Shown: positions 13,045-58,153, numbered from the stretch's first letter. The stretch: 64,000 nt of DNA from a virus (IMGVR_UViG_3300005512_000009:1-64000); one strand, 5' to 3'. Notes: generated from the sequence alone by a model not told the origin. Numbers and translations: made by a program.

Positions 13045-15165
13045 ATGAATATAGATAATATCATTAAAGAAGAAATTGCTCGATTAAATGAAACTGCTGG
13101 TAAAAATATGCCAGATACATTTTTTGATCGGGTTGTACAAAAGCTTGGAGGAACACCAACTCAAGAAAAAAGAAGATTTTTCAGAGCATGGAAACGAGCT
13201 GAAGGCACTGATGCTAAAAATAATCCATTAGCAACAACACTTAAACTTAAAACCTCACATGGTGGTTCGACTGACATGAAAGGTAGCTATAATAACGGCC
13301 AGCCAGTTCAAGATTATAAAACAATGGATGCTGGTGTTGATGCTACATTTTGGACGTTAAAAAATACATATGGAGGTAAGGCTTATCAAAATTTAGTTGA
13401 TAAACTAAAATCTGATGATATAACTGCAGAAGAATTAGCTGCAGAAAAGAAAGAATTAGCTACTTGGTCAATGACGGCTGGAAATTATGTAGCAGATCAA
13501 CTCCCATATGTAGCAGATCAACTAGGACCTGGACAAGTGTCTACTAAAAACAATGATGCAGAACAAAAGCCACAACAAAATGGTTTAGATATATCCGATA
13601 AAGAAATTGCTAAATCATTTCAACAAGCATCTTTAGACCGAATATCTGATAAAGAACATGAAGAGCAGTTGGATAAGATTCAAAGATACTTAGATTATGG
13701 CGGATTTATTCCATTCATTGGGGATGCAGTAGATGCATTAAACGGTGTTCTTTACTTTGCTCGTAACAAACCAATGGAAGGAATATTGTCTTTTATCGCT
13801 ATTATCCCAGGTGTTGGCTCAGTAATAGCAGTACCACTTAAACTTGTATTACGTAGCATCAAAGCCGTTCCTAAAATAGCCTTTCTAGCCAGCAAAAATG
13901 GGGTTAGTTGGTTATCAAAGAATATATTTAAGAATCCTTTATTTAATAAACTAGTTTTAAAAAAATATGGACCGAATTCACTGAAACAAGTGTTAGATGC
14001 AGGAGAACCATTTTTGCGCGCACTTAATGGTTTGCCAACGAAATTAAAAGGCATACCTATAGTAAACCGACTTGCAAATCCTGCAGATCAAGCCGCTAAA
14101 GTATTTGAGAATTTCTTAAAAGCTGGCAGAAAAACATATGACGATATGTTAGCTGCAGCTAGCGGCGGCGCTGCAAAAGCAGCTGAAGCTGGATCTGAAA
14201 CAGTGTTTGCAGCAGTAAAAAAATATGGAAAAATATTGGGCCGATCAAAATTAAATAAAATATTTGGTGGAAAGACAATAGACGCGTTTGTAAAATTTGG
14301 AACAAAAAATTTAGATCAGGTACTTTCTAAAAATATTATCAATAAGATTGTTACTAGAGTTGCAAGAAACCCAGAAGCGTTTCAGCAGTTATTGCGACAA
14401 GTTGATTTTGATAACCCAGCTACAAAGAAAAAAATCAAAGAGTTTTTAGAAGGAGCATTTATTAAAGACCCAGACCTTGCTAAATTATACTCAGGGTCGC
14501 GCGGCACGCGTTTAACCCAAAGAGCTATCGATACAATACCAAACGCGTCATCAGATCAAATAAAACGGCTTCTTGGCGATACTAGGATGTTTAATTCAAA
14601 ATTTAGAAAACGATTCTTAGAATATGTTACAAACAGCCCTGACGCTGGTTCATATTTTCGAAAGTTTAATGATGTATTTAAATCTAGAGCTGGTATACAA
14701 GCGGAAAAAGAAATGGCAAACATTACAAACTTTTTCCGCGGTGTAGATGTACGTGGCTTTTTTCTTGGTAAACGAGTTCCAAAAAATGCTAATTTTTGGG
14801 ATAAACTTGGAAAACTTGGTGAAAATATTAATGCGCCAAAAATACTTACGAAACTACCTTATATCCTCGATGATTTTGAAAAAATACAATTCGTACAGGA
14901 TGCAGAAGTAGAAGATCCGAAAATAAAACTTATGTTTGAAAAATTAAAAGGTCAGGTACTCTCGTTGTATGCAAACAAGTTTTATCAAATACCTGGCTTT
15001 TTATCTGCAGATGAGATAGATGAAATAAATGAACGATATAAAAATAATTTGCAAGAAATTCAAAAAATACAAAGCTTGATAGCAAATGATATTGCTTCTG
15101 GAAAAGAAGATTATACAGAAGGCGATTTAAAGGCTTTAGAATTGGCAGCAGAATTAACAGAATAA
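13045..15165 (+). CDS. Large putative virion protein: lysozyme-like N-domain, pre-toxin-like motif, basic C-region
   Basis: AWKRAEG..NNPLATT..QDY; LDYGGFIPFIGDAVDALNG..SFIAIIPGVG. Confidence 0.6.
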   Translation: MNIDNIIKEEIARLNETAGKNMPDTFFDRVVQKLGGTPTQEKRRFFRAWKRAEGTDAKNNPLATTLKLKTSHGGSTDMKGSYNNGQPVQDYKTMDAGVDATFWTLKNTYGGKAYQNLVDKLKSDDITAEELAAEKKELATWSMTAGNYVADQLPYVADQLGPGQVSTKNNDAEQKPQQNGLDISDKEIAKSFQQASLDRISDKEHEEQLDKIQRYLDYGGFIPFIGDAVDALNGVLYFARNKPMEGILSFIAIIPGVGSVIAVPLKLVLRSIKAVPKIAFLASKNGVSWLSKNIFKNPLFNKLVLKKYGPNSLKQVLDAGEPFLRALNGLPTKLKGIPIVNRLANPADQAAKVFENFLKAGRKTYDDMLAAASGGAAKAAEAGSETVFAAVKKYGKILGRSKLNKIFGGKTIDAFVKFGTKNLDQVLSKNIINKIVTRVARNPEAFQQLLRQVDFDNPATKKKIKEFLEGAFIKDPDLAKLYSGSRGTRLTQRAIDTIPNASSDQIKRLLGDTRMFNSKFRKRFLEYVTNSPDAGSYFRKFNDVFKSRAGIQAEKEMANITNFFRGVDVRGFFLGKRVPKNANFWDKLGKLGENINAPKILTKLPYILDDFEKIQFVQDAEVEDPKIKLMFEKLKGQVLSLYANKFYQIPGFLSADEIDEINERYKNNLQEIQKIQSLIANDIASGKEDYTEGDLKALELAAELTE

Positions 15166-15950
15166 TGATACGAGAATATCAAACACAGAATGAATTGAAT
15201 CCAAAGCTTTGGGATGGTGGCCAATTAAAACCTAGTCTTCGTCTCAAACTGCTTAAGATTGCCCAATACTTTTATGAGTTCTTGGGCATTGATGCTCCAA
15301 TCAAAGGAGTTATTCTTACAGGTAGCAATGTAAATTATAATTGGACTGATACTTCTGATATTGATCTTCATGTTCTTATCAATTATAAAGATGTAAATGA
15401 CAGCATACCATTTGTCAGAGAATACATGATGGCAAAAAAGAGTATTTGGAACAATACTTATCCATTACAATATAAAGGTATGCCAATTGAATTGTATGCA
15501 CAGGATGAAAATGAGCCTCATGCATCAACTGGTGTATATTGTTTGAGTTGTGATAAATGGTTGAAACAACCATCCCCAGAACAAGTATCAGTAGATGATG
15601 TTGAAATAGATCGTAAAGCTGATCCTTATAAGTTTGAAATAGACAATCTTCAAGCAGATGATCCGCAACTTGAAATGAAGATCAAAAGTCTTAAAAAGAG
15701 ATTGAAACGAATGCGTCAAACAGGTCTTGAAGCTTCAGGTGAATATTCAGTTGAAAACTTGGCATTCAAAACACTTCGTAATTCAGGACATTTAGCTAAA
15801 CTCAATGATTTGCAACAAGGCAATGTAATGAGTTCATTAGCATTAGAAGCTTCAGTAGATGAAGTGTATGCAGATAGTGGTTTAGGTAAATGGTTTGGTA
15901 AAGGAAAAGAAGGAGGTGTTGGCGGCACATGGAGGAAATCAAAGAAATGA
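15165..15950 (+). CDS. Pol-beta superfamily nucleotidyltransferase
   Basis: LTGSNVNYNW..SDIDLHV, IELYAQD. Confidence 0.75.
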   Translation: MIREYQTQNELNPKLWDGGQLKPSLRLKLLKIAQYFYEFLGIDAPIKGVILTGSNVNYNWTDTSDIDLHVLINYKDVNDSIPFVREYMMAKKSIWNNTYPLQYKGMPIELYAQDENEPHASTGVYCLSCDKWLKQPSPEQVSVDDVEIDRKADPYKFEIDNLQADDPQLEMKIKSLKKRLKRMRQTGLEASGEYSVENLAFKTLRNSGHLAKLNDLQQGNVMSSLALEASVDEVYADSGLGKWFGKGKEGGVGGTWRKSKK

Positions 15951-16366
15951 AATTAAAATATTTAGCATTAGAAGCCAAAACAAAATGTCCTGCACCAACT
16001 CAAGACATTGCACTCAATTTGAAGAACAGACAGACTGCAATTGATGAATATGGGTATGGTCCTGCTGATCCATCTCAAAAGAATGAAAAGTTTTGGCAGA
16101 AGAAACAGGATATGTGGAACACTGATTCTGCAGACGAATTAAAAAATATGATTTGTGGCACATGTGCTGCATTTGACATAACAAACAAAACATTGGATTG
16201 TATCAGTAAAGGCATTGGAGGTGAGGAAGCAAATGACCCATATGATGTTATCGATGCAGGAAAATTAGGTTATTGCAGATTTCTTAAATTTAAGTGCGCC
16301 TCTAAAAGAACTTGCGATGCTTGGGTATCCGGAGGACCAATAAAAAAGGAAAAGAATGAAAAGTAA
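15947..16366 (+). CDS. Cys-rich phage protein
   Basis: CPAPTQD..CGTCAAFD..GYC..FKC..RTCDAW. Confidence 0.65.
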   Translation: MKLKYLALEAKTKCPAPTQDIALNLKNRQTAIDEYGYGPADPSQKNEKFWQKKQDMWNTDSADELKNMICGTCAAFDITNKTLDCISKGIGGEEANDPYDVIDAGKLGYCRFLKFKCASKRTCDAWVSGGPIKKEKNEK

Positions 16367-16520: not shown

Positions 16521-17113
16521 TGAGCAAGAAAAAATTACAAGAAGGATTTGGAATAGGAGAACTTCCTTCATCTAAACTAATGAAGATGAAAGTGGGACTT
16601 AAAGATCTTATGCCAGAAGGCGATGGATACCAAGTAGTTCCAGGCAAAGTATATGACAATCCATATGCAATGGCATTCAAACCAGTTGATCATGATGACA
16701 CTAAAGGAATGGGTTTGACTCATTCTTATACTACTGATTATGATCATGAAGGCAAAATGGCACGTACACAGCTTGAGCGTTGCATTGACACATCAAAAAT
16801 GCTTCGTGGTATGATTGATGAAAAAGCTGAATTGCCGGCATGGGTGCAAGCCAAACTGACTAAAGCAGCAGACTATTTGCAATCGGTTCATAACTACATG
16901 GATGGTCAAGATGGATTAGCAGATGACGGCCTGTTTCGTAAAAAAGAATTGATTGCTTCTATTCAACAAGACTTAGATGAAAAGATTCGCAAAGTAGAAG
17001 ATGGTTGGGCTGTATATCCAAGTGCGGGAGGAAAACGTTTAGGTACGCATCCTACAAAGAAAGCAGCTTTAAAACAATTGGCAGCTATTGAGATCAGCAA
17101 ACAAAAGAAATGA
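16517..17113 (+). CDS. Hypothetical putative head-associated protein
   Basis: DHEGKMA..LPAWVQAKLTKAADY; C-terminal LGTHPTKKAALKQL. Confidence 0.6.
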   Translation: MMSKKKLQEGFGIGELPSSKLMKMKVGLKDLMPEGDGYQVVPGKVYDNPYAMAFKPVDHDDTKGMGLTHSYTTDYDHEGKMARTQLERCIDTSKMLRGMIDEKAELPAWVQAKLTKAADYLQSVHNYMDGQDGLADDGLFRKKELIASIQQDLDEKIRKVEDGWAVYPSAGGKRLGTHPTKKAALKQLAAIEISKQKK

Positions 17114-17742
17114 TTAAGCTCAAAGACATATTACTAGAGGCTCCTAAAACAAATTTTAATGCCGAACTCATTGATTTTAATGAATCAAATGTATCTGCAG
17201 GACAAATGATATTTGATTATATTCGTAGTCATGAAAAGTTCGTACCATTTACTTATGATGATAAGGCAGGATATCCTCCAAAGCCATATGACAAATCAAA
17301 AGGTGCACCTAAGGGACGTTTAACAATTGGCTATGGAAGTACAGACCCAGAGTATGCATACCCAGGAAATAAAATAACAGAAGTAGAAGGTAAAAGACTT
17401 TCAGTAACAGGCATCAATGATGCTGCTGATTGTATACGTCGTTGGCAAAGCAGATCTAATGAGTTTGATGTGCATCAAAGAAAAATAACATTGAATATGT
17501 TTAGAGCATTAATTGACTTTGTATATAATGTTGGTTGTTCAGCTGCAGTGAATGGCGCAGTGTTTGAGTCAATTGAAGCAGGCGATTATGAAGATGCATA
17601 TACTCGTCTTAAAACTGGGAATTGGGGACACGAATCTAGACGTACAGAGACTGCAGAATTATTTGCACAAGAAGGGTTTCCTAATAGATATATCAATACA
17701 GCAAATCTGCAGTCCATGGCAAATTTCAAAACCAAAAAATAA
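17110..17742 (+). CDS. Lysozyme (GH24-like) with N-terminal leader
   Basis: IRSHEKF..YDD..LTIGYG, ALIDFVYNVG, RRTETAELF. Confidence 0.8.
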   Translation: MIKLKDILLEAPKTNFNAELIDFNESNVSAGQMIFDYIRSHEKFVPFTYDDKAGYPPKPYDKSKGAPKGRLTIGYGSTDPEYAYPGNKITEVEGKRLSVTGINDAADCIRRWQSRSNEFDVHQRKITLNMFRALIDFVYNVGCSAAVNGAVFESIEAGDYEDAYTRLKTGNWGHESRRTETAELFAQEGFPNRYINTANLQSMANFKTKK

Positions 17743-18453: not shown

Positions 18454-18837
18454 ATGGGAAAACGAGGATACCAAGGCGAATCGCCAAAAGACAGAGCAAC
18501 CAATATCATGGATAAGTTTATCCAACGATCAGATCGTAAAGCTGCTCAGCAAGAAATAAAACCATTAAGACGAAAAGACCCAAATATTCCAATGGAATTG
18601 TGGCCATTGAAAGACCAAATTGAATATTGGGATAATCGTACGCCAGAACAAATATTTCGTTATAAATACACATACTCTTCTTGGTATAATGAAGTATTAG
18701 AAAAATCTGGTATGTACCCAATCACATTCAGAGACTGTGTAGCTAAGCACAAGAGTAGATTGCAAGAATTATTCAATCAATGTACTTCTACTAGAGAAGC
18801 AGTTTCAACATTGCAAAAGGAGAATATTATTTTCTAA
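18454..18837 (+). CDS. Hypothetical protein
   Basis: ORF in operon. Confidence 0.6.
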   Translation: MGKRGYQGESPKDRATNIMDKFIQRSDRKAAQQEIKPLRRKDPNIPMELWPLKDQIEYWDNRTPEQIFRYKYTYSSWYNEVLEKSGMYPITFRDCVAKHKSRLQELFNQCTSTREAVSTLQKENIIF

Positions 18838-19397
18838 TGTGTGCAGATAAGTCACAATACAAGTATGTATATGGCAGAGGCCGTTCTGCGTTTAATCTGT
18901 CAGAGTCTGATGTACGTTATGCAATAGACAATACAAAGTCTAATGCTGAAGCAGCTCGTTTCATGAAAGTGTCATTCACTACATGGAAAAAGTATGCAAA
19001 AATGTATACAGATGCAGAGACGGGAAAGACTCTATATGATACGCATACTAATATTGCTGGTGTTGGAATATCTAAACGAGCACCTAGAGCATCAGCTGGG
19101 CCGTATCAAATTGATGAAATTCTACAAGGAAAATATCCAAAATATCCTGCATGGAAGCTTCGTAACAGATTGTTAGCATTAGGTATTATGGAAGAAGAAT
19201 GTAATAGTTGTGGATATAATGAACATAGAATTACAGATGACACAGTGCCTGTATTGTTAGATCATATTAATGGAGATAACACAGATCATCGTTTAGAAAA
19301 TTTACAGTTGCTTTGTCTAAATTGTTATTATCAACAGGTAGGAAATCCATTCAAGCAAAAATCTCCGAGATTTTGGAATTACAATGACTTAGATTAA
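18837..19397 (+). CDS. HNH endonuclease with N-terminal HTH
   Basis: CNSCG..LDHINGDNTDHRLENLQLLCLNC. Confidence 0.8.
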   Translation: MCADKSQYKYVYGRGRSAFNLSESDVRYAIDNTKSNAEAARFMKVSFTTWKKYAKMYTDAETGKTLYDTHTNIAGVGISKRAPRASAGPYQIDEILQGKYPKYPAWKLRNRLLALGIMEEECNSCGYNEHRITDDTVPVLLDHINGDNTDHRLENLQLLCLNCYYQQVGNPFKQKSPRFWNYNDLD

Positions 19398-19701: not shown

Positions 19702-20475
19702 ATGATATCTTTAAAACGTTTAATAATTGAAGGTCGTTACGATTCAATAGTAACAGCATTGAGCAGAGAAATGTTGAATGCAATCAAATCTAGTTTTGAA
19801 TCAACTAAAACAAAAAACGGCAAATTTGCGGGAACTAAAATATATTTCCGTAAAGGAGAGCAAGTACCTACAATAGATGGTGATGATTTCAGTCATATCT
19901 ATTTTCATGAAGTTGAAAATGAACAAATACCATTAGAGTTCAAGATAGCACTACGGGTACAATGGATTGAAGGACTTGATGATTACAGAAAAGGTGGTGA
20001 TGCATACAATGATCAGACCGATGATCCTGCTGATGCAACTACCGATCCATATATAGAAATACGATTTGAATTAGACCCAGCAGATGCTCCAAACATATAC
20101 AGCAAAGTTGCAATGGATCTAAGAGATACAATCCGACATGAAATAGAACATATTACACAAACTGGATGGAATTTGTTGCCAGGAAAGTATCTTCCGAGTG
20201 ATCAGGAACGAAGAAAACAAATCGAAACAGGCGAATTACCTGCTCGAGAATATTTCCTACTTCCAATGGAAATACCAGCTATGATACAAGGAATGTATCT
20301 GCAAGCAAAAAAATCAAGACAACCATTTTCTAAAATTGTTAATGACTATTTAGATCATTTCATTGCAATGAAAGACGAAAATGGTAATTCATATATCACT
20401 CCAGACGACAAAGAACAGATTCTTGCAACATGGAGAAAACATGTACCTAAATTGGGACTAAAGGTAAAATTATGA
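19702..20475 (+). CDS. Putative zinc metallopeptidase-like virion protein
   Basis: IRHEIEH HExxH; MISLKRLIIE leader. Confidence 0.6.
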   Translation: MISLKRLIIEGRYDSIVTALSREMLNAIKSSFESTKTKNGKFAGTKIYFRKGEQVPTIDGDDFSHIYFHEVENEQIPLEFKIALRVQWIEGLDDYRKGGDAYNDQTDDPADATTDPYIEIRFELDPADAPNIYSKVAMDLRDTIRHEIEHITQTGWNLLPGKYLPSDQERRKQIETGELPAREYFLLPMEIPAMIQGMYLQAKKSRQPFSKIVNDYLDHFIAMKDENGNSYITPDDKEQILATWRKHVPKLGLKVKL

Positions 20476-21026
20476 TCAAATTGAAAAGTTTATTAGAATC
20501 AAAAGCGTTGATGTCAGAAGCAATGCAATATCATTATGATAATAAAATTAGTATCACCGAAAACATATTTCGTGTGCAAAGCGAAGCAAGTTTCAATTTA
20601 ATTGTTGAAGCACGTGAAATGTTTGATGCTGGCCATGCATGGTTTGAAGGACGTGATAAAGAACTTTTTGAAACTACTGATATAGGTAGATTTGCTACAT
20701 TTGAAGGCAAACGTGTTCCGTTAGATCACCCAATGGAAATTCCACTCGATGAAGCAGAATACCAAGGCAAAAAAGTAAGTCTAGGAAAGCCAACCAAAGG
20801 CGGTCGTAAAAAGTATCAAGTATATGTTCGCAATAACAAAGGCAATGTAATTAAGATTTCATATGGTGATTCTGGAATGAAGGCAAATTGGAATGACCCT
20901 GGAGCTAGAAAGTCATTTGCAGCTCGTCATAGATGTCATATGAAAAAGGACAGAACTAAAGCTGGTTATTGGGCTTGTCGAGCACATAAAGATTTCGGAC
21001 GTAACGTTTCAGGCAGATTCTGGTAA
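20472..21026 (+). CDS. Conserved-type phage protein with leader and basic C-domain
   Basis: EAEYQGKKV..KKYQVYV..RKSFAARHRC..AGYWAC. Confidence 0.65.
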   Translation: MIKLKSLLESKALMSEAMQYHYDNKISITENIFRVQSEASFNLIVEAREMFDAGHAWFEGRDKELFETTDIGRFATFEGKRVPLDHPMEIPLDEAEYQGKKVSLGKPTKGGRKKYQVYVRNNKGNVIKISYGDSGMKANWNDPGARKSFAARHRCHMKKDRTKAGYWACRAHKDFGRNVSGRFW

Positions 21027-23076: not shown

Positions 23077-23721
23077 ATGTATATTTATGGCTACCAAAAC
23101 AAAATAAATCAAAAATGGTATATTGGTAAAAGTGAGTGTAAAAATAAAACGCGTCGACATACTGAACACGTAAAACACGTACGTAATAATATGAAAACGC
23201 AGTTTTATGATGCAGTACGAAAATATGGATGGAAAATGTTTGATCGTCATATTTTATTTGAGTGTGACTCACGTATTGAACTAAATCAAAAAGAGATCGA
23301 ACTGATTGCTGAGTATAATAGTTACCGTAAAGGTTACAATGCGACTCAGGGAGGAGATGGCGGTGATACATTTTCATCATTATCAGAATCTCAAAAAATA
23401 GAAGCGAACAAAAAACGTTCAGCTTCATTGAAAGAAGCCTGGGTTCGAGATAGAGAAAAATGGATGAAATCATTTTCAGACACAGATTACTCATACCGAC
23501 GAACAAAGGAGTATAGAAAAGCACAATCTGAACGTTGTAAAACGATCAAAAAAGTAATAGACCCAGCTGGTAATGTTTATGAGTTCAAAGGTTTGGAAGA
23601 AATGAAAACGTATTTCAAAGATGTTGTAAACAAAGATATACCAATGAGAAACCCACATCGTGTGTCGCCAACGGTTATAGCTTGGCATGGTGAAAGTAAA
23701 GGCTGGAAGTTGATAGAATAA
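23077..23721 (+). CDS. GIY-YIG homing endonuclease (Seg-like)
   Basis: YIY..N.IN.KWYIGKS, AVRKYG, E..LI, GYN.T.GG.GG. Confidence 0.85.
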   Translation: MYIYGYQNKINQKWYIGKSECKNKTRRHTEHVKHVRNNMKTQFYDAVRKYGWKMFDRHILFECDSRIELNQKEIELIAEYNSYRKGYNATQGGDGGDTFSSLSESQKIEANKKRSASLKEAWVRDREKWMKSFSDTDYSYRRTKEYRKAQSERCKTIKKVIDPAGNVYEFKGLEEMKTYFKDVVNKDIPMRNPHRVSPTVIAWHGESKGWKLIE

Positions 23722-24450: not shown

Positions 24451-24535
24451 GGAAGAGTGGCAGAGTGGTCGATTGCACTTGTCTTGAAAACAAGCGTACA
24501 GAGATGTACCGTAGGTTCGAATCCTACCTCTTCCG
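24451..24535 (+). tRNA. tRNA-Ser(TGA)
   Basis: Cloverleaf with long variable arm. Confidence 0.92.
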
Positions 24536-24542
24536 CATTTAT

Positions 24543-24613
24543 TGTCCTGTGGTGTAATGGCAGCACATCTGGTTTTGGTCCAGAGAATCGAGGTTCGAAT
24601 CCTTGCGGGACAA
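24543..24613 (+). tRNA. tRNA-Gln(TTG)
   Basis: Anticodon arm tctgg-ttTTGgt-ccaga. Confidence 0.92.
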
Positions 24614-24619
24614 CTATTC

Positions 24620-24693
24620 GCCCTCTTAACTCAGTTGGCTAGAGTACCACACTTTTAATGTGGGAGTCCAGGGTTCGAGTCCCTGAGGGGGTA
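24620..24693 (+). tRNA. tRNA-Lys(TTT)
   Basis: ccaca-ctTTTaa-tgtgg. Confidence 0.92.
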
Positions 24694-24800
24694 CAAGCTG
24701 TTCTGCATCAGAAGTGCTGGGTAGGTGAAACATTCTATCAGATGAGCCCATCAAAATGTGAGTAGTTTTGTGGTAACTACTTAAAAGTAAACCACATTAT

Positions 24801-24883
24801 GCCCGAGTGTTGGAATTGGTAGACAAAGCGGTCTTAGAAACCGTGGCTGTAATGGCTTGAGAGTTCGAGTCTCTCCTTGGGTA
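24801..24883 (+). tRNA. tRNA-Leu(TAG)
   Basis: gcggt-ctTAGaa-accgt. Confidence 0.92.
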
Positions 24884-24890
24884 CAACAAT

Positions 24891-24962
24891 GCACCTTTAG
24901 CTCAGAGGGAGAGCGCTTGCCTTACATGCAAGATGTCGGTGGTTCGAATCCATCAAAGTGCA
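24891..24962 (+). tRNA. tRNA-Val(TAC)
   Basis: cttgc-ctTACat-gcaag. Confidence 0.9.
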
Positions 24963-24969
24963 CTATTAT

Positions 24970-25055
24970 TGGTAGGTGGTCGAGTGGTTAAAGGCGGCAG
25001 ACTGTAAATCTGCTCTCTTCGGAGTACGGGGGTTCGAATCCCTCCCTACCAACCA
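24970..25055 (+). tRNA. tRNA-Tyr(GTA)
   Basis: gcaga-ctGTAaa-tctgc; encoded CCA. Confidence 0.92.
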
Positions 25056-25058
25056 TTT

Positions 25059-25132
25059 GCATTGGTAGTTCAATTGGATAGAACACTTCACTACGGATGA
25101 AGGGGTTGAGGGTTCGAGTCCTTCCCAATGTA
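25059..25132 (+). tRNA. tRNA-Arg(ACG)
   Basis: cttca-ctACGga-tgaag. Confidence 0.92.
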
Positions 25133-25138
25133 CAAATT

Positions 25139-25211
25139 GGTACTGTAGCTCAGTTGGTAGAGCAGTTGATTTGTAATCAACCGGTCATCAGTTCGAATCT
25201 GGTCAAAGGCT
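25139..25211 (+). tRNA. tRNA-Thr(TGT) with mismatched acceptor stem (chimeric/pseudo)
   Basis: gttga-ttTGTaa-tcaac; acceptor GGTACTG vs CAAAGGC has three mismatches. Confidence 0.7.
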
Positions 25212-25218
25212 CATTTAT

Positions 25219-25292
25219 CGCCCGTTCGTCTAGCGGTCAAGGACATCGCCCTTTCACGGCGAAGATCACGAGTTCGAATCTCGTACGGGTGA
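25219..25292 (+). tRNA. tRNA-Glu(TTC)
   Basis: tcgcc-ctTTCac-ggcga. Confidence 0.92.
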
Positions 25293-25305
25293 CAGTAAAT
25301 AATAA

Positions 25306-25376
25306 GGCGGGGAGCTTAGTAGCAGCCGGGTCTCATAAGCCATGGTGTGTAGGAGGAGCGTTACCTTCCCCCGCAA
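25306..25376 (+). tRNA. Atypical initiator-like tRNA-Met(CAT)
   Basis: fMet-type acceptor GGCGGGG/CCCCGCA, ctCATaa loop, reduced D arm, non-canonical T loop. Confidence 0.55.
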
Positions 25377-25381
25377 CTAAT

Positions 25382-25465
25382 GCACCTGTGGTGGAATAGG
25401 TAGACACGTGGGACTTAAAATCCCATTCCGTTTTAGGAGTACCAGTTCGATTCTGGTCAGGTGCA
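25382..25465 (+). tRNA. tRNA-Leu(TAA)
   Basis: tggga-ctTAAaa-tccca. Confidence 0.92.
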
Positions 25466-25473
25466 CATATATT

Positions 25474-25545
25474 GGTCCTATGGTTGAATGGTACAATGCC
25501 ACCCTGTCACGGTGCGCGGTACGGGTTCGAATCCCGTTAGGACCG
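25474..25545 (+). tRNA. tRNA-Asp(GTC)
   Basis: cacc-ctGTCac-ggtg. Confidence 0.88.
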
Positions 25546-25553
25546 CAATAAAT

Positions 25554-25627
25554 GGGCTGTTAGTTCAGATGGCTAGAACGCCTGCCTTGCACGCAGGAGG
25601 TCGTGAGTTCGAGTCTCACACGGTCCA
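25554..25627 (+). tRNA. tRNA-Ala(TGC)
   Basis: cctgc-ctTGCac-gcagg; G3-U70. Confidence 0.92.
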
Positions 25628-25634
25628 CAAATAA

Positions 25635-25707
25635 GCGGAAGTAGCTCAACTGGTAGAGTATCAGATTTCCAATCTGGTCGTTGAGGGTTCGAGTCCCTTC
25701 TTCCGCT
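25635..25707 (+). tRNA. tRNA-Gly(TCC)
   Basis: tcaga-ttTCCaa-tctgg. Confidence 0.92.
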
Positions 25708-25712
25708 CAAAA

Positions 25713-25785
25713 GCGAGATTAGCTCATTTGGTAGAGCATCACCTTGCCAAGGTGAGGGTGGTCGGTTCGAATCCGATATCTCGCT
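25713..25785 (+). tRNA. tRNA-Gly(GCC)
   Basis: tcacc-ttGCCaa-ggtga. Confidence 0.92.
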
Positions 25786-25791
25786 CAACAT

Positions 25792-25870
25792 AGGGTAGTA
25801 GAGGAGTCAGGTTTATCTCGCTACATTTGGGATGTAGAGCACGCTGGTTCGAATCCAGTCTACCCTACCA
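25792..25870 (+). tRNA. tRNA-Pro(TGG)
   Basis: ctaca-ttTGGga-tgtag; encoded CCA. Confidence 0.9.
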
Positions 25871-25950
25871 TAGTATGGTTTTAACAAATGCCTGTGCCAG
25901 AATGTCGACCAAAATACAGGGATATGTAGGTAGCGACTTACCGCTAAACA

Positions 25951-26024
25951 GGACTTGTAGCTCAGTTGGTTAGAGCACCGCACTCATAATGCGTAGGTCA
26001 TAGGTTCGAATCCTATCTGGTCCA
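25951..26024 (+). tRNA. tRNA with CAT anticodon (Ile2 likely, or elongator Met)
   Basis: cgca-ctCATaa-tgcg; Ile-like body. Confidence 0.85.
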
Positions 26025-26031
26025 CTGATTT

Positions 26032-26105
26032 GCACCCATAGCTCAGCTGGATAGAGCAACTCACTTCTAATGAGTAGGTCAAAGGTTCGAATCCTTTTGG
26101 GTGTA
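26032..26105 (+). tRNA. tRNA-Arg(TCT)
   Basis: actca-ctTCTaa-tgagt. Confidence 0.92.
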
Positions 26106-26139
26106 CAACTTTATTTAGTTCCAAATATTTATAAGTGTT

Positions 26140-26345: not shown

Positions 26346-27992
<1,647 letters not shown>

Positions 27993-28016
27993 GATAAAAC
28001 GAGTCAAGTTTAATTC

Positions 28017-28051
28017 AAAGAGGATTCATAGGAAACTATGGATCCTTTTTT
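28017..28051 (+). terminator. Intrinsic terminator after groEL
   Basis: AGGATTCATAG-GAAA-CTATGGATCCT plus T-run. Confidence 0.8.
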
Positions 28052-28124
28052 ACTATCTTTTTTTACATAATGGTTGGATCTGTACGGCTTTTTTCTTATA
28101 TTATAATATAATTAAGAAGTAGAT

Positions 28125-32280: not shown

Positions 32281-32339
32281 AAATGCTTGACACGCACACA
32301 TATTCTTCTTATATTTATGTAAATTAAAAGATAAGAGCA
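32281..32339 (+). promoter_or_regulatory. Early-type promoter repeat 1
   Basis: TTGACA-N17-TATATT plus TATGTAAATT leader. Confidence 0.85.
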
Positions 32340-32612
32340 ATGTTAGACACTTTAAAATGGGAGTTGGATCAAGCACTCCTAGTATGCGCAGACGGAACGG
32401 ATATTCCACTCACACAACGTTGGGAGTTGTCGTTGCAAGACATTGAATGCTGGTATGCAGAGATGATCCTGCTAGCAGAGAGTTACGGCAGGATCGTGAC
32501 ACACGTATTTACATTCTTCGAAGATGCACCTACCATGTTTTGGTTGGATGACTTGACTGGAGAGCTTAGAGCATTGGATGTTACAGACACAGAGAAAATC
32601 AATTTAAATTAA
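32340..32612 (+). CDS. Small early protein
   Basis: Directly behind promoter repeat. Confidence 0.65.
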   Translation: MLDTLKWELDQALLVCADGTDIPLTQRWELSLQDIECWYAEMILLAESYGRIVTHVFTFFEDAPTMFWLDDLTGELRALDVTDTEKINLN

Positions 32613-32617
32613 TAGAC

Positions 32618-32839: not shown

Positions 32840-32850
32840 AAAAGTTTACA

Positions 32851-32910
32851 AAATGCTTGACACGCATTGAATTTTGTCTTATATTTATGTAAATTTAAAA
32901 ATTAAGAGAT
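32851..32910 (+). promoter_or_regulatory. Early-type promoter repeat 2
   Basis: TTGACA at 32857. Confidence 0.85.
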
Positions 32911-33542: not shown

Positions 33543-33543
33543 T

Positions 33544-38150: not shown

Positions 38151-38708
38151 ATGAAAAGATTTGCATTTATTGTTTCTTTGATAATATCATCAACGGGATA
38201 TTCACAAACACAAAATATTTTATTAGCTCAAGTATCAGGCACAGATACGTTATATTATGCTACTTTGCCAGCATTTACAATACAAGCCAAAAGGTCTGCG
38301 GCATCTAAACGTAAGCATGTAAGATTGATAGCCGACATTAAACGGGTTTATCCATATGCTAGATTGGGTGCTAAAATTTTAGACTCATATCGAGATAGTA
38401 TTGCAAGTGCTGAGACAGATCGTGAAGCTCGAGTGTTTTATAAACGAGCAGAACAAGAGTTGAAAACGCAATATGGACGAGAAATAAAAGCATTGAATCA
38501 TCGTCAAGGACTTTTGTTAATCAAACTTATTGATCGAGAAACATCACATACAGCATATCAAATTATTTCAAATTCTCGTTCAAATCTAACTGCGGGGTTA
38601 TATCAAGGCATTGCAAGAATATGGGGTTATAATCTTAAGACTCGATATGATGCTACAAAAGAATATGAAATTGAATCAGCATTGTATGATATATATGGAG
38701 TGATATAA
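38151..38708 (+). CDS. DUF4294-like exported protein
   Basis: IKRVYPYA..QG.LLIKLIDRET..YNLKT.YD. Confidence 0.7.
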   Translation: MKRFAFIVSLIISSTGYSQTQNILLAQVSGTDTLYYATLPAFTIQAKRSAASKRKHVRLIADIKRVYPYARLGAKILDSYRDSIASAETDREARVFYKRAEQELKTQYGREIKALNHRQGLLLIKLIDRETSHTAYQIISNSRSNLTAGLYQGIARIWGYNLKTRYDATKEYEIESALYDIYGVI

Positions 38709-39459: not shown

Positions 39460-39762
39460 ATGAATATGAAATTAACATCTTTATTAAGTGAAAGAACCGA
39501 GTCGACTCGTATTACAATAGCAGGCGTTTCATTTAGGGTATTTGGCCATGAAAATCGTTTGTATCTTTTACCGGAGACTACAAAAGATTTAGATCTTATT
39601 GATGACCGCGGTGGCAAAGAAGCTTTTATTCAAAATGAAACATTTCCATTTCTAGAAACAGTAACTGGCATTACGTGGCAATGGGATGAAGCTAATCCGG
39701 GAGCAGGTCATATATTCGAAGTAGACTTAGATGTTGTGATTCAAAGTCTTAAAGGAGCATGA
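39460..39762 (+). CDS. Hypothetical protein with leader MKLTSLLSE
   Basis: After ATATTTAT motif. Confidence 0.6.
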   Translation: MNMKLTSLLSERTESTRITIAGVSFRVFGHENRLYLLPETTKDLDLIDDRGGKEAFIQNETFPFLETVTGITWQWDEANPGAGHIFEVDLDVVIQSLKGA

Positions 39763-40142
39763 TGAACAAGACGTTATTAAAACAACTTATCCGAGAAGAG
39801 ATAAAGAATGTACGAGAGCAAATGTCAGATGACTTAGAAAATACAACATCAAATGATGATGCATATTCAAAAGCATTTGATTCAATGGATACAGATCCGA
39901 TTGTTCATCCCCAAGCTATTGAGAAAATGGCTGACGCATTAGACGTTAAAGTAAGCATACACTTAGGTGCTGGTTATAACAAATTAACTTTTAACCAACG
40001 TGAAGATGTTGATGAAAAGACATTTGAACGAATGATTCAGTTTTTAGAACGAATAGGATACAATGTTGATTTAGGACAGAGTGACAGAATGTATGATTTT
40101 GAGCCAGGCGAGCGCGATTATTATCCTCGAATAGTATTCTAA
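39759..40142 (+). CDS. Hypothetical protein with LKQLIREE leader
   Basis: ORF. Confidence 0.6.
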   Translation: MMNKTLLKQLIREEIKNVREQMSDDLENTTSNDDAYSKAFDSMDTDPIVHPQAIEKMADALDVKVSIHLGAGYNKLTFNQREDVDEKTFERMIQFLERIGYNVDLGQSDRMYDFEPGERDYYPRIVF

Positions 40143-43214: not shown

Positions 43215-43976
43215 ATGGATGTACGTAAAATAGTTCAAGAAGAATTGCAAAGAATTGTTGCTGAACAGGCAGAAGAGGTGGATACTTCACCATTTTCTGC
43301 AGAAGAACAAGCATTCTTAGGCAAATTTGCAGAGAAAGGAAGTCAATACTTAGGCATTCTTTATTCAAAAACTGATATTGGCTTCGAAGAGTTCATTACA
43401 CGAGCGGGGTCGACATTAAATTTAACACGTCCAGTGCTTGATAACCTCATAAAAAATAAAATTGTAAGTGTTACACCATATGGCGGATACGGACGCAATG
43501 AAGATTACACCATAAAGCTCAATATCAAGCTAGATGATGTGATGCCTTTCAAAGGTATGGACGGCGATGATGCTGCCGCGGCTGGAGCAGAAGGTGGTGC
43601 AGGCGCACCGGAAGAGGTAGGCGCTGAAGTTCCTGAAGCTGGACCTACTGAGTGGGTGGCTAATTATGGGGACGTTCTTACAGAAACAGTTAATGTAGCA
43701 AAAAAGGTCATGACTTCTAAAAAAAAGAACGAAGCTAAGGTATATGCGAAGTCAGCAAGAACACTTCAACGACTTCCAAAAGGATATTTACGGTATCTAG
43801 AGCAAATTATTCGCATACTGTCTAAAAAGGTGCATAACAATTTAGAAAGAGAACATCTTGTTGCTGACATACTTGACAATTTAGCACATAATTTTGGTTT
43901 AACGCCTACACAGATATATCGTAGCTATATTTATTATAAATCACAGAATCGTTTACAACGAATAGTAGGAAAATAA
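43215..43976 (+). CDS. Hypothetical putative virion protein
   Basis: RKIVQEEL leader; acidic Gly/Ala linker. Confidence 0.6.
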   Translation: MDVRKIVQEELQRIVAEQAEEVDTSPFSAEEQAFLGKFAEKGSQYLGILYSKTDIGFEEFITRAGSTLNLTRPVLDNLIKNKIVSVTPYGGYGRNEDYTIKLNIKLDDVMPFKGMDGDDAAAAGAEGGAGAPEEVGAEVPEAGPTEWVANYGDVLTETVNVAKKVMTSKKKNEAKVYAKSARTLQRLPKGYLRYLEQIIRILSKKVHNNLEREHLVADILDNLAHNFGLTPTQIYRSYIYYKSQNRLQRIVGK

Positions 43977-43977: not shown

Positions 43978-44958
43978 ATGATTAAATTGAAAAGTATATT
44001 GCGTGAAGCTGGATTGTTAGGTGAACAAGCTAATCAAACACAAGTTTTAAATGTAACCCCAGGTGATACTCAGCAACAATTACAGCAACAATTAATTGAT
44101 TCTGAATTAGATTTAACTAATCCGGTAACTATTAATTTAACATTTAGTTCACAATTACCAAATAATGGTGTTCCATCTTCTAACCAAATAACTCAGTTAC
44201 AAACTACACTAACAGCAATAGGTGCAATTGGAAAAAATGTATCAGCAGTTGTTAATGCAGGCACTACAGCTACTAGAGCTACTGGTACTGGAGCTCCTGT
44301 TAGTCAATTTACACAAGGTGGAGCAGCTTTTGCGAGGGCATTTCCTAATATTGCGCAAGCATACCCAGTTACTAATAATGAAACTAGTAATAACTTTTTA
44401 TTATTAAATAGAGCTGGTGCTATATATCAAGCTGCAATCAATGCCGGTATTCAAAATGTTACTACAACAATACCAACTGATGGCACTGCTACAAGACAAC
44501 AAACCAGATTTGCAACACTAAGCGTTACTGGGGTTTTTAAGCTTGAAGCAAAAGTAGAATTTGCATTTGACGTCGCAGTTAGAGTACCAAATCAAACGGA
44601 ATTACGTAGCGGTAGAGCATATACTATTCCGTTTTATGTAAAAAGGGGATATAACGTTAAAATGCCTGGAACATGGACGAATATTGGTTCTCAAGCTAAC
44701 TTTGAATCATTTGTATCAAAGGCAGCTTCTGGTAAAAATTGGTCTGGTTCCGAGTTGGATGATAAACGGTTTGCAACCATTGACCCAACAACGTTTGCGA
44801 AGTTTCAAACACTAAATAGTCTAATATCAAAAATTGATATCATGGATTATTTACGAACTAATGCAGCTGAGTTATCTGAAAAATCTTTTTTAGAGCCATG
44901 GAGACAAGATAAAGCTGCGATTGGTATTGATAATGTAATTAAACTTTTCAGTGAATAA
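43978..44958 (+). CDS. Putative virion protein with MIKLKSILRE leader
   Basis: T/N/Q-rich. Confidence 0.65.
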   Translation: MIKLKSILREAGLLGEQANQTQVLNVTPGDTQQQLQQQLIDSELDLTNPVTINLTFSSQLPNNGVPSSNQITQLQTTLTAIGAIGKNVSAVVNAGTTATRATGTGAPVSQFTQGGAAFARAFPNIAQAYPVTNNETSNNFLLLNRAGAIYQAAINAGIQNVTTTIPTDGTATRQQTRFATLSVTGVFKLEAKVEFAFDVAVRVPNQTELRSGRAYTIPFYVKRGYNVKMPGTWTNIGSQANFESFVSKAASGKNWSGSELDDKRFATIDPTTFAKFQTLNSLISKIDIMDYLRTNAAELSEKSFLEPWRQDKAAIGIDNVIKLFSE

Positions 44959-45008: not shown

Positions 45009-45527
45009 ATGAAAAAGTTATTGATTATTGTATTCGTAAGTGTATCGCAAATTTGTTTTGGTCAGAATACACCATCACCAAATTTGGCTGATTATTTACC
45101 TAAAGATACAACTACTAAAATACACGTAAGCCAGACAATTGAATACAACATTCGATTTCAAACAGAGTTTTACAAACAAATAAATACATATCGAAAAGCA
45201 AATGGTAAGAAACCTCTTCAACCAGATTCTGTGTTAGAAGCTAGTGCACTTCAACATTCTAAATATCAAGCGTATGAGGGAGAAATGACTCATATTGAAA
45301 CCAATAAAAATAATCCATATTATGTTGGGGAACAAGTATCTTGGCGAAATGGTAATGGTGAAAATGTTATGTATGGCATTGGAGGCCATGACCCGGATGC
45401 ATCTGCGTCGTTTGCATTTACACTTTGGAAATTGTCACCAGGACATAGACAGAATATGTTAAGCGATTACAAATTTGTTGGTGTTGCGGTGTATGATGGA
45501 TATGCTACAACAGTATTTGGATTATAA
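45009..45527 (+). CDS. Secreted CAP (SCP) domain protein
   Basis: Signal peptide; INTYRK..L..A..HS, GENV, WKLSPGHRQNML. Confidence 0.85.
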   Translation: MKKLLIIVFVSVSQICFGQNTPSPNLADYLPKDTTTKIHVSQTIEYNIRFQTEFYKQINTYRKANGKKPLQPDSVLEASALQHSKYQAYEGEMTHIETNKNNPYYVGEQVSWRNGNGENVMYGIGGHDPDASASFAFTLWKLSPGHRQNMLSDYKFVGVAVYDGYATTVFGL

Positions 45528-49826: not shown

Positions 49827-50081
49827 ATGAAATATAGACTTCAAAACGATTATGATAATGTAATAGATTTAATTGATAATCTATTAGACATAAATACATT
49901 TAAGAATTCAGATACATTTTTTAATTGGTGTGTAGATGTATTAATTTTTATATCAAATACTCTTAATATTTCATATGAAGAGGCTAATATTCTTATTTTT
50001 GTAATTATACACCCAATAATTACCATGATATTAGCACTAGTTGTATTAAAGCAGCGCCGAAAAATAAAAAGATTAAGTTAA
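49827..50081 (+). CDS. Small membrane protein
   Basis: FNWCVDVL..ISYEEANILIFV. Confidence 0.6.
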   Translation: MKYRLQNDYDNVIDLIDNLLDINTFKNSDTFFNWCVDVLIFISNTLNISYEEANILIFVIIHPIITMILALVVLKQRRKIKRLS

Positions 50082-51089
50082 CGTATTAGGATCGATAGTT
50101 AAATTTACTGATAAGGCCTTTTCAGGTATATTGTCTGGATAATCAACCCATCCCTTTACACGAGCAGCTTCGTAGTAACTTAAATCATATTCGTCTTGTA
50201 ACTCAGATATAGATTTTCCTTCAAGCGATTCTCGATTGATACCTGATATTGCTGCATATCTTGGATCTTTAAAATCATATTTATCTGTTATAGTATATGT
50301 ACCATCACTATTTTTATTCCAATTAAAACGTCCTAATAATGTTGCCATAGCAAATTTCATATCAAATGTTATCGCACCCCATGCAGCCTCCCATGTGCTA
50401 GGACTTCCTTTTTCATTTTGAAATTTTGATGCAACCTCTTGACCATAATCAATATATTTCGTACTACCACTATTTGTACGATTGAGTCTTTTAGCAGATT
50501 GTTGTATTACATTTAATAGTATTTTTTGTTGTTCATCAGTAAAATCTGCAGTTGTTAAAGATTTACCTTTAAGTAATTGAACAACGTTTGGAAACCCTTT
50601 TCTAATGTATTGAAACCAACCTTCATCAGACTCAGGTTCTTTACTAGTAATTTTGTTCATTGTTTTTTGATCTTGCTTTTGCGGTGTTTGAAGCATCATA
50701 TAATTTAATCTTTGCTCAATATCTTCTCGATCAGCTCCAGCAACATATGTAGACATTCCAGGCATATTACTACCATGATCAACTTTGAAATCAAAATCAT
50801 CAACCGTAACAAGTTTATCTAATTCTGCAGTTGTTTTAGGGCCGACTACACCATCCCATTCTTTTGGGTTGTTAGGAAATTGTTTTTCTTGAAATTTCTT
50901 CACAGCAGCTGCTGTTTTAGGACCATAGATACCATAACTTGTATCCGGTATTGGATTCATTATCCCAGCATCAATTAATTTTTGTTGTATTTTTGCAATG
51001 GGGCCGGTTTTAGTTCCAACCCGCGGGTCTCGCATTCCTCGTTTAAACAACCTTGTTTGTTCTTGTAATAATGATTTTAGTTTTATCAT
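50073..51089 (-). CDS. Peptidoglycan-binding domain protein with MIKLKSLLQE leader
   Basis: IQQKL..GIYGPKTAAAVKKFQ..DGVVGPKT. Confidence 0.75.
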   Translation of the reverse strand: MIKLKSLLQEQTRLFKRGMRDPRVGTKTGPIAKIQQKLIDAGIMNPIPDTSYGIYGPKTAAAVKKFQEKQFPNNPKEWDGVVGPKTTAELDKLVTVDDFDFKVDHGSNMPGMSTYVAGADREDIEQRLNYMMLQTPQKQDQKTMNKITSKEPESDEGWFQYIRKGFPNVVQLLKGKSLTTADFTDEQQKILLNVIQQSAKRLNRTNSGSTKYIDYGQEVASKFQNEKGSPSTWEAAWGAITFDMKFAMATLLGRFNWNKNSDGTYTITDKYDFKDPRYAAISGINRESLEGKSISELQDEYDLSYYEAARVKGWVDYPDNIPEKALSVNLTIDPNTLT

Positions 51090-51163: not shown

Positions 51164-52186
51164 ATGGTTAGATATGGGTATTGTTGCATCAACATGGAGT
51201 TGGGCAAGCAAAAGATTCGTACGGGTCGTACGATGATTCAGCGAAAATTTGAAGAAGGTGGCTTGCAACTTGCTTCTGATATATCTTTAGAAAATGCAAT
51301 GGATTTGCTTCCTATACTTCAGTGGAATGAAGAGAGAGGCATTCGATTGTTTCGAATTGGCTCTGAGATATTTCCTCGTTGGAATCATTACAAACTAGAA
51401 GATTTACCTGAAATTGATCTTATTGCAGACATACTTCGTGAAGCGGGCGATTATGCTCGTGAACATGGTCATCGACTCACTACACATCCGGGTCCGTTCA
51501 ACATCTTGGGTTCTCCAGATCCGGTTGTAGTAGACAATACAATTGTTAGTCTCGAACGACATTCAGAGATGTTTGATTTGTTAGGTTATGATGATGCTAC
51601 TCCTGATAACCTTATCAATATTCATATAGGTGCTACTTATGGCGATAAGCCTAATACGATTGCCAGATGGCTTCGTAATTTTGATCGCTTGTCAGATCGC
51701 CTTAAAGCTCGCTTAGTTGTAGAGAATGATGACAAGGCTTCAATGTATTCTGTACGAGATCTTTATGAAATGGTACATAAGCAGACAGGCACTCCGGTTA
51801 CTTTTGATTATTGGCATCACAAATTCAATACCGGTGATTTGTCTGAAGAAGAAGCTTTCTATATGGCTCGAGAAACATATGAGGTGCATGGCGTTACCCA
51901 ATGTACCCATTATTCTGAATCTCGTCGCAAAGAATACCAAAAGAAGTTAGAATTGATTTGTGAACAACACGATATTCCATTTGACAAATTAGAAGAATGG
52001 CCGACATTTGAAAAGTTATACAAAGAATTCAGCAAGATCAAAGAACAGGCACATAGTGATTATATCTTAGAATTACCTAATACTTATGATGTTGATGATT
52101 TAGACATCGAGGTTGAAGCTAAAGCAAAAGAACAGTCATTGTTGCAAATTGGGTTGTACGAAACACCACAGATTTTACAAGATTAA
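51164..52186 (+). CDS. uvsE: UV-damage endonuclease
   Basis: GYCCIN, LFRIGSEIFP, TTHPG, IHIG, VVENDD, FDYWHH, HYSESR, AHSDY, EAKAKE. Confidence 0.92.
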   Translation: MVRYGYCCINMELGKQKIRTGRTMIQRKFEEGGLQLASDISLENAMDLLPILQWNEERGIRLFRIGSEIFPRWNHYKLEDLPEIDLIADILREAGDYAREHGHRLTTHPGPFNILGSPDPVVVDNTIVSLERHSEMFDLLGYDDATPDNLINIHIGATYGDKPNTIARWLRNFDRLSDRLKARLVVENDDKASMYSVRDLYEMVHKQTGTPVTFDYWHHKFNTGDLSEEEAFYMARETYEVHGVTQCTHYSESRRKEYQKKLELICEQHDIPFDKLEEWPTFEKLYKEFSKIKEQAHSDYILELPNTYDVDDLDIEVEAKAKEQSLLQIGLYETPQILQD

Positions 52187-57624: not shown

Positions 57625-57661
57625 AATTACAGTGTAAATATTTATTAAAAAAGAAGAAACT

Positions 57662-58153
57662 ATGGATTCAAAAACATTAGTTAAAGTTTTAAAAAAAGTG
57701 GTAAGAGAAGAAGTTCGTTCTGTTATTAAAGAAGAACTTTCTGAAATCTTGCAAGAAGGGTTACAATCAACAATCAACGAAATGTCGATTACAGAAACAG
57801 CAACGCAAACGCCACAAATTACAAAATCAAAGAAAAAGAAAATTGAATTTAAAAAAAATAAATTTTCAGACATTCTTAACGAAACAGATTCGTTGCGAGA
57901 ACAATCGCCATATGGTGCGATGATGAATCAGCCATTAAATGAAAACATTACAATGACGTCAGCCGACGCACAAGGCTTTGGTGCAGTACATGAAAAAATG
58001 CGTGCACAAATGATGGGTATCGAAACCCCTTCTGTAATGGCTGATCCAGAAACTGGCAAATCTTTACAAGTAGATCCAGTTGTAGCAAAAGCAATGACAC
58101 GTGATTATTCAGCATTAATGAAAGCAATGGATAAGAAAAAAGGTAAAGGATAA
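57662..58153 (+). CDS. Hypothetical virion protein
   Basis: KKVVREEV leader; TRDYSALMKAM. Confidence 0.6.
   Translation: MDSKTLVKVLKKVVREEVRSVIKEELSEILQEGLQSTINEMSITETATQTPQITKSKKKKIEFKKNKFSDILNETDSLREQSPYGAMMNQPLNENITMTSADAQGFGAVHEKMRAQMMGIETPSVMADPETGKSLQVDPVVAKAMTRDYSALMKAMDKKKGKG

Follow-up and report, generated by a model that had tools for sequence, protein, structure and literature searches.

A common N-terminal leader on dissimilar proteins of an uncultured T4-type phage resembles the capsid-targeting sequence of T4

Results

Genes headed by the leader

This report concerns a stretch of viral DNA of 64,000 nucleotides (IMGVR_UViG_3300005512_000009:1-64000; the window), in which many genes for otherwise dissimilar proteins begin with a common leader of about ten residues. 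The window covers the initial 64 kb of a linear IMG/VR contig of 93,542 bp that is estimated to be ∼55% complete, and coordinates prefixed G000 are those of the whole 93.5-kb contig, including the part beyond the window. The leader consensus, M-I-K-L-K-x-(I/L)-L-x-E, was found on 13 genes of the window and on six more of the same contig: MIRLKTILE (G000 71479), MIKLTTLLIE (G000 72053), MKSILQE (G000 80766), MKSLLKE (G000 90768), MKSNLKYILE (G000 92300) and MNNLLLE (G000 91675), the last being the leader of the prohead protease itself. An earlier note on this DNA had proposed such a leader on about 13 proteins; all 13 N-termini read as it gave them and where it placed them, and the variant class that it singled out (IIKEEI/LIREEI/IVQEEL/VVREEV) is real and is kept in relatives. 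With the terminal Glu as P1, [LI]-x-E ends at residue 7–12 in 10 of the 13 window genes, with Ala at P3 in the 15947 gene and Val in the 43215 and 57662 genes.

The published T4 rule alone, [LI]xE ending at residue 7–13, served as an a priori test; it was satisfied by 25 of the 120 genes, where 10.1 would be expected (binomial 1.8e-5), which implies ∼15 true members and ∼10 chance matches. A tighter pattern (L[KRT]x[LI][LIA]x0-1E or MK[SN][IL]LxE), drawn post hoc from the data, occurs at 14 of 720 N-terminal and 1 of 25,913 internal positions (Fisher 1e-21). Compared with internal positions of this proteome, the leader is enriched 29- to 500-fold at N-termini. At N-terminal [LI]xE sites, P7 and P4 are both hydrophobic in 14 of 25 cases versus 38 of 309 internal sites (p=1e-6), indicating that the leader carries information beyond the cut site. 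Among 15 homologues of the lysozyme described below (25–33% identical), M1, I2, L4, L8 and E10 are invariant and I/L7 is conserved; the linker that follows is variable and rich in indels, the leader thus being better conserved than the linker. Codons vary synonymously among members (ATT/ATC/ATA, CTC/TTG/TTA/CTA, AGT/TCA, GAG/GAA), which suggests that selection acts on the peptide, and the DNA 5′ of leader genes is unrelated between members. A DNA-level repeat was rejected on these two grounds.

The cargo proteins

Downstream of the leader, the mature parts of these proteins (cargo) are mutually dissimilar: all-versus-all BLASTP returned nothing significant beyond the leader, in line with the claim of unrelated downstream domains. 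Most cargo matched no family in Pfam or PHROGs, and Atlas gave sub-threshold leads only. In the gene at 17110–17742 (plus strand), the leader MIKLKDILLE/ (slashes mark predicted cleavage sites) precedes a T4-type lysozyme (GH24; Phage_lysozyme PF00959 E=4.9e-14, phrog_7). On the minus strand at 50073–51089, MIKLKSLLQE/ heads a protein that joins PG_binding_1 (PF01471 E=1.8e-8) to an uncharacterised C-terminal domain, with the sequence ATATTTAT 21 nt upstream. A Cys-rich cargo of 139–145 residues with 7 Cys is encoded at 15929–16366 (plus strand; start noted earlier as 15947) behind (MEEIKE)MKLKYLALE/AKTKCPA, and the boundary is kept in an orthologue (L032), which reads MEKLKHLLQE/AKSGCPA. These three cargoes had been described in the same terms before. 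A fourth, at 19702–20475 (plus strand; leader MISLKRLIIE/), had been called an HExxH peptidase. The motif stands, as RHEIEHITQ is invariant among 34 homologues; the peptidase label does not, as no family or fold was matched. The protein was modeled with a predicted local distance difference test score (pLDDT) of 85 and disordered leader residues 1–8, and because the model matched no solved structure in the PDB convincingly (Foldseek best E=0.31; VIA best Z 5.5), we do not call it a peptidase.

The largest cargo is a 706-residue protein encoded at 13045–15165 (plus strand), whose leader belongs to a second, double-site class (class 2), MNIDNIIKE/EIARLNE/TAGK. Hydropathy analysis gave it a transmembrane (TM)-like segment at residues 247–265, and its net charge is +20. 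A Pfam search with this protein found no family, and a Foldseek search with the whole model was meaningless, low-confidence helices dominating it. The model of its N-domain (residues 20–158) matched three GH73 structures in VIA-align: AtlA (7qfu_A; Z 8.0, 129 residues aligned, root-mean-square deviation 3.5), FlgJ (5dn5_A; Z 7.1) and 4qdn_A (Z 6.6). The matches cover residues 13–159, and the Atlas score for PF01832 was a sub-threshold 0.81; taken together, the model is suggestive of a GH73-like domain.

The other members lie on the plus strand and include several ORFans. MIKLKSLLE/ heads a basic protein of 175 residues from a family with no assigned function (phrog_7595; 20472–21026), MNLRNIITE/ an ORFan of 107 residues (36599–36949; ATATTTAT 51 nt upstream), and MKLTSLLSE/ an ORFan of 89 residues (39466–39762). 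At 37658–38089, MKNILAE/NMRRFGTKNLAE/ is followed by a protein of 124 residues, and three genes of a complete relative (G001) share the start ILAENMRRFGTKNL with this gene. Class-2 leaders precede an acidic protein of 107 residues (MNKTLLKQLIRE/EIKNVRE/; 39762–40142) and a protein of 236 residues (MDVRKIVQE/ELQRIVAE/; 43215–43976). The dialect of the former, MKxSxLKxLIKEEI, heads at least five tandem genes in another genome (G004) and several in phage immuto. The ORFan of 310 residues behind MIKLKSILRE/AGLLGE/ (43978–44958) had no family and no relatives in protein searches of cultured phages and IMG/VR, in Pfam or in Atlas. Finally, the gene at 57662–58153, directly upstream of baseplate wedge genes, encodes a multi-site helical leader protein (VVRE/EVRSVIKE/ELSEILQE/) with eight [LI]xE sites in 163 residues, and it looks scaffold- or core-like.

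As a group, mature cargo is poorer in internal [LI]xE than other proteins (0.71 vs 1.27 per 100 residues, P=0.001), and 14 of 19 leader members are Cys-free compared with 27 of 101 other proteins (p=1.5e-4).

Domain boundaries and cargo exchange at the leader

Homologues place the start of the mature domains directly behind the leader Glu. The family of the HExxH protein has ∼100 relatives in IMG/VR, and in the close ones a conserved GRYD motif of the mature part comes after the leader Glu. Other phages have this domain as a C-terminal module in proteins of 500–1000 residues, directly after LKE/, LTE/ or LEE/, and one homologue is leaderless and begins at the mature end. In immuto and G004, the HExxH domain is fused behind a nucleotidyltransferase-like module that is here a separate leader gene (G000 80754); the product of that gene has a C-terminus with PLTE/GVLLTE/G linkers. 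The family is widespread in phages encoding a Peptidase_S77 (S77) protease, where it occurs as a leader protein on its own or as a C-terminal polyprotein module. Most homologues of the 13045 protein retain MNIDxII(K/R)E/EIxxLNE/TAGK, six are leaderless and start no more than two residues from LNE/, and one has another leader dialect before the same TAGK; a leaderless orthologue (P0031) had no relative in IMG/VR. In P0027, the 13045 leader and the 546-residue C-terminus (89% identical) are retained around an unrelated N-domain of ∼140 residues, a domain cassette swap. In AlphaFold models, residues 1–8 of the HExxH protein and 1–17 of the 13045 protein fall below pLDDT 50, ahead of well-folded domains.

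Close strains show where cargo has changed. Between the contig and strain L029, whose flanks are 85–91% identical, homology spans the leader of the 17110 gene (29 of 30 nt), ends right after the Glu codon at 17138 and restarts past the end of the gene, the intervening L029 cargo being unrelated. Compared with strain L028, DNA homology begins at the leader ATG, and L028 has an insert of ∼1 kb after the 20472 gene with another leader gene. Since homology between near-identical strains breaks exactly at the leader ends, the cargo has been swapped at the leader.

To see how far the leader has spread, IMG/VR was scanned with a DNA pattern made degenerate for MIKLKx(h)LxE. Among the matches listed, 125 of 143 lie at the starts of open reading frames of at least 60 residues, and the leader heads at least 128 distinct proteins in at least 80 clusters. 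Other lineages use dialects of their own, namely MKxSxLKxLIKEE(I/V), which equals the variant of the earlier note, M(K)[DE]NFDLKKFLVE and MKHIKLFExFxxE; all retain h(P7)-x-x-h(P4)-h(P3)-x-E. The last of these is found on many small genes of L075, L076, L094 and L104 (G011–G014), which are fragments of much larger phages (62–125 kb, 20–41% complete by CheckV), and in G011 and G012 the S77 domain lies within a protein of ∼720 residues.

Prohead protease and the T4 cleavage rule

A gene for an S77 protease of the T4 gp21 type lies at G000 91675–92298 (phrog_207, 1.4e-55), with an above-cut-off match to PF03420 at G000 91696–92208 (E=3.8e-35). The protease is also encoded in six of six complete or near-complete relatives that carry the leader, and in several fragments. 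Cleavage by T4 gp21 falls after L/I-x-E, and in the T4 internal protein (IP) IPIII the 10 N-terminal residues are enough for packaging, residues 4 and 7 serving targeting and 8 and 10 processing (PMC9026906). The leader is conserved at these same functional positions (L4, I/L7, L8, E10). Read by the same script, T4 gave MKTYQEFIAE for ipII/ipIII, MAKINELLRE for gp24, MLKEQLIAE for gp22 and MNEPQLLIE for gp21, which share the h-x-x-h-h-x-E spacing and the length of MIKLKxLLxE.

The proteins that flank the protease gene have a leader and many L-x-E sites, as do T4 gp67, gp68 and gp22, and their homology to gp67 and gp68 was undetectable in Pfam and PHROGs. In relatives, an acidic, L-x-E-rich gene sits between the protease and capsid protein genes. 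The capsid proteins of relatives read IVSE/A, LISE/A, LVKE/A and LVTE/A where they align to T4 FLTE/AEIGG, the established cleavage site of gp23. The T4 gp23 propeptide has 65 residues (PMC9026906).

A promoter-like motif upstream of leader and virion genes

The motif ATATTTAT occurs at 35 sites versus 13.1 expected (2.7-fold). It had been suggested that most leader genes follow it, and this is so for 8 of the 13 in the window (within 70 nt) and for a ninth, 43215, as the second gene of a unit headed by ATATTTAT. Specificity for leader genes was not borne out, as ATATTTAT also precedes baseplate, portal and lysis genes; by its distribution in the sequence, it is a promoter-like element of general use that virion genes have in common with leader genes. 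Two classes can be told apart, since six copies at 32.3–36.0 kb have a TTGACA -35 and the rest have no -35. The six belong to near-identical cassettes in the window (32311–36000), TTGAC(A/T)CGCA-N12-CTT-ATATTTAT-(G/A)T(A/C)A, each 21–23 nt before a small gene. The -35-less copies precede leader genes as well as baseplate, portal and other virion genes, a distribution that fits co-expression with virion genes, with the timing inferred.

The source phage

Judged by its sequence, the contig is from a T4-superfamily phage. The nearest cultured relatives by portal tblastn are Microcystis phage Mel-JY01 (58.7%), Flavobacterium phage immuto (50%) and Rhodothermus phage RM378 (35%), with T-even phages and cyanomyophages at ∼25%. 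At the end of the contig, terminase, portal, two uncharacterised genes and prohead protease stand in the order of T4, and the contig stops just past a gene for ribosomal protein bS21 (G000 93084–93320, E=8.7e-10), where relatives continue into scaffold and capsid genes. Genome GC content is 30–42%. The phage counts as a 'far-T4' phage, with a host probably in the Bacteroidota. Small signal- or lipoprotein-like proteins (36980–37552, 38151–38708, 45021–45527; for example ...CVAFGYAQT and ...SSTGYSQT) are interspersed among the leader genes. We take the N-termini at 36980, 38151 and 45021 to resemble Bacteroidota-type signal peptides and so to suggest a host in the Bacteroidota, although the closest isolate is catalogued as a Microcystis phage. 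In L028, one gene of the signal-peptide type is inserted along with the extra leader gene.

Several other genes were noted. A full-length GroEL-type chaperonin (Cpn60_TCP1, E=3.4e-75; window 26376–27992) lies just 3′ of an array of 16 tRNA genes on the plus strand (window 24451–26106). T4 capsid folding relies on host GroEL, and a phage-borne GroEL in a T4-type phage deserves attention. One 3.8-kb stretch that includes this gene (26376–30182) had no megablast match among cultured phages and IMG/VR. HNH (phrog_10822) and GIY-YIG endonuclease genes (window 18837–19397 and 23077–23721) lie within or near the cargo cluster, a UV-damage endonuclease UvdE (E=3.2e-53) is encoded at window 51164–52186, and a Pfam search with the protein of G000 81658–83673, 3′ of the G000 80754 leader gene, found no family.

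Discussion

A probable capsid-targeting and processing leader

We consider it likely that the leader is a capsid targeting and processing leader of the T4 type, that is, a capsid targeting sequence (CTS) with the properties of a propeptide. The argument runs by analogy with T4, and the earlier note had read the leader in this way. Each prediction of such a system that could be examined in the sequences held: an S77 gene is on the contig, the leader ends in L/I-x-E and keeps the T4 functional positions, mature domains start after the Glu in homologues, cargo is exchanged at the leader boundary, and the variant class is conserved in relatives. That the leader proteins bind the core, are cut, reside in the virion and are ejected is inferred from the T4 precedent. 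In the mechanism that we propose, they would be made late, from the -35-less ATATTTAT(A) promoters common to virion genes. The leader would dock the tagged proteins to the scaffolding core of the prohead through hydrophobic P7, P4 and P3 together with Glu at P1, a pattern whose i, i+3, i+4 spacing would present one face of a helix. A serine protease of the gp21 type (Peptidase_S77) would then cut after the Glu and free the mature protein in the head, and at least part of the cargo would exit the head along with the DNA. Recombination at both leader ends would exchange cargo between strains; because only the leader is needed, it could act as a portable joint, and the same cargo domains are found elsewhere as polyprotein modules with L-x-E linkers between them.

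The strongest competitor is a propeptide for cleavage only, as in zymogen control, that holds no targeting information and whose bearers arrive at the prohead, or at a different site, in some other way. The terminal L/I-x-E would fit the protease rule in this case as well (PMC9026906), the T4 shell protein gp24 has a similar 10-residue propeptide, and several cargoes are enzymes that could plausibly be held as zymogens. However, P7 and P4 are constrained at N-terminal and not at internal sites, M1, I2 and L4 are invariant across lysozymes that are 25–33% identical, and the same positions serve targeting in T4 (PMC9026906). Moreover, in T4 the proteins that gp21 cuts make up the core and shell of the prohead (PMC9026906), which means that substrates are already inside. 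We therefore regard cleavage without targeting as unlikely.

Quite improbable is a tag for another enzyme or pathway, such as a maturase of the kind acting on ribosomally synthesized and post-translationally modified peptides, secretion or a degron. Two cargoes act on peptidoglycan, outside the cytoplasm, as such a tag might predict. On the other hand, the leader N-termini are charged and amphipathic, and hydropathy analysis found no hydrophobic core of a Sec or lipoprotein signal peptide and no TM-like window at any of them, the only such window in the cargo being that of the 13045 protein; a signal-peptide reading was rejected for this reason. True signal peptides of another kind are present in the same window (36980, 38151), and their N-termini look unlike leaders. 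A radical-SAM tag was likewise rejected, as PF04055 is absent from the incomplete 93.5-kb contig (the control matched 14 of 14 genomes). In addition, the leader has the protease motif at its end and is equivalent to the linkers of the polyproteins, and S77 is found in every complete leader-bearing genome. Least credible of all is a nucleic-acid or compositional effect, in which AT-rich MIKLK codons aid initiation without a strong Shine-Dalgarno sequence or a promoter-leader cassette was recently copied: the low GC content, the frequency of M-K/I-K-L starts in AT-rich genomes and the leader DNA common to close strains would suit it, but synonymous codons differ (among them AGT/TCA at Ser and CTC/TTG at Leu), upstream DNA is unconserved, a Glu at fixed distance with hydrophobic P3/P4 goes beyond codon bias, and the enrichment over internal positions is 29- to 500-fold.

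Several points weigh against a capsid-targeting leader. Of the 25 genes that match L/I-x-E alone, ∼10 are expected to do so by chance, and the loose motif admits DNA primase (G000 73755, phrog_47) and terminase (G000 86421), both of which were rejected as members. The depletion of internal sites in mature cargo is modest once corrected for composition (observed/expected 0.80 vs 1.22), and the net charge of the cargo ranges from -11 to +20 and is not uniformly basic as in T4 IPs. We know of no T4 precedent for a head-packaged lysozyme. With the contig ∼55% complete and ending before the capsid and scaffold genes, the docking partner is out of view. Since the similar 10-residue propeptide of gp24 belongs to a shell protein, the leader alone is no proof of internal cargo. 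Literature searches on the leader string and on the relatives Mel-JY01 and immuto turned up neither proteomics for this clade nor an account of the leader.

A capsid-targeting and processing leader could be part of a broader scheme, which we offer tentatively and hold to be possible, if on balance doubtful. The T4 superfamily would have a leader grammar, h(P7)-x-x-h(P4)-h(P3)-x-E, spoken in lineage dialects that are each matched to their own scaffold and protease, and the leader would double as a precise joint for cargo recombination. Here, the GH73-like protein with its TM segment, the GH24 lysozyme and the PG-binding protein would form a head-stored, T7-like ejection set for penetrating the wall, in a phage with a T4-type head and baseplate-wedge genes.

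If the leader does target the capsid, it would make the proteins inside the head, which are probably injected, readable from sequence for a large lineage of uncultured phages, and dozens to hundreds of uncharacterised families would become candidates for roles in anti-defence, host take-over or cell-wall penetration. The T4 CTS principle, shown experimentally only in T4 so far, would extend to distant T4-type phages, leader-boundary mosaics would amount to a mechanism for rapid cargo exchange, and a ready packaging tag would be at hand for engineering Flavobacteria phages.

Comparison with known systems

The closest known system is the CTS of T4, which is carried by IPI, IPII, IPIII and Alt and removed by gp21 (Mullaney & Black 1996, reviewed in PMC9026906 and PMC3012670). 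Both are N-terminal leaders of ∼10 residues with hydrophobic positions 4, 7 and 8 and Glu 10, both occur with a gp21-family (S77) protease gene beside portal and core genes, and in both the leader alone is common to unrelated proteins at plastic cargo loci. In contrast to T4, the dialect here is MIKLKxLLxE rather than MKTYQEFIAE, a second, double-site leader class is present, and ∼13–19 genes are tagged on half a genome, compared with 3–4 cargo proteins in T4, the set here being known from sequence alone. Whereas T4 cargo is small and basic, that described here includes a GH24 lysozyme, GH73-like, PG-binding and HExxH proteins and a 706-residue protein with a TM-like segment. The propeptides of the T4 core and shell (gp24, gp22, gp67, gp68, gp21 and the gp23 delta-domain) follow the same protease rule. 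As T4 gp21 has MNEPQLLIE/, the protease here has its own leader MNNLLLE/, its neighbors are rich in L-x-E like gp22, gp67 and gp68, and the cleavage site of the capsid protein aligns in relatives; unlike the T4 set, the capsid and scaffold genes are off this contig. Repoila and colleagues (1994, cited in PMC9026906 as ref. 69) are said to have described an IP locus at which related T-even phages have distinct proteins, each with a CTS-like leader. The plasticity is of the same kind here, with the joints mapped to the first and last codons of the leader and in an unrelated lineage.

In the giant phages phiKZ, 201phi2-1 and SPN3US, a diverged homologue of gp21 removes head propeptides by cutting after Glu (PMC5694885, PMC7411985, PMC10052503, PMC9026906). 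As predicted for this phage, many head and ejection proteins (8–19 there) undergo cleavage behind a Glu by a protease related to S77, and a large internal cargo is present. Giant-phage propeptides are long, and the motif reported for them is small-x-E, not L/I-x-E. To our knowledge, no short shared leader of 10 residues has been described in giant phages. The principle is thus known from T4 (PMC9026906, PMC3012670); what appears to be new, as far as it can be read from the genomes, is a lineage with a larger, enzyme-rich and demonstrably swappable cargo set.

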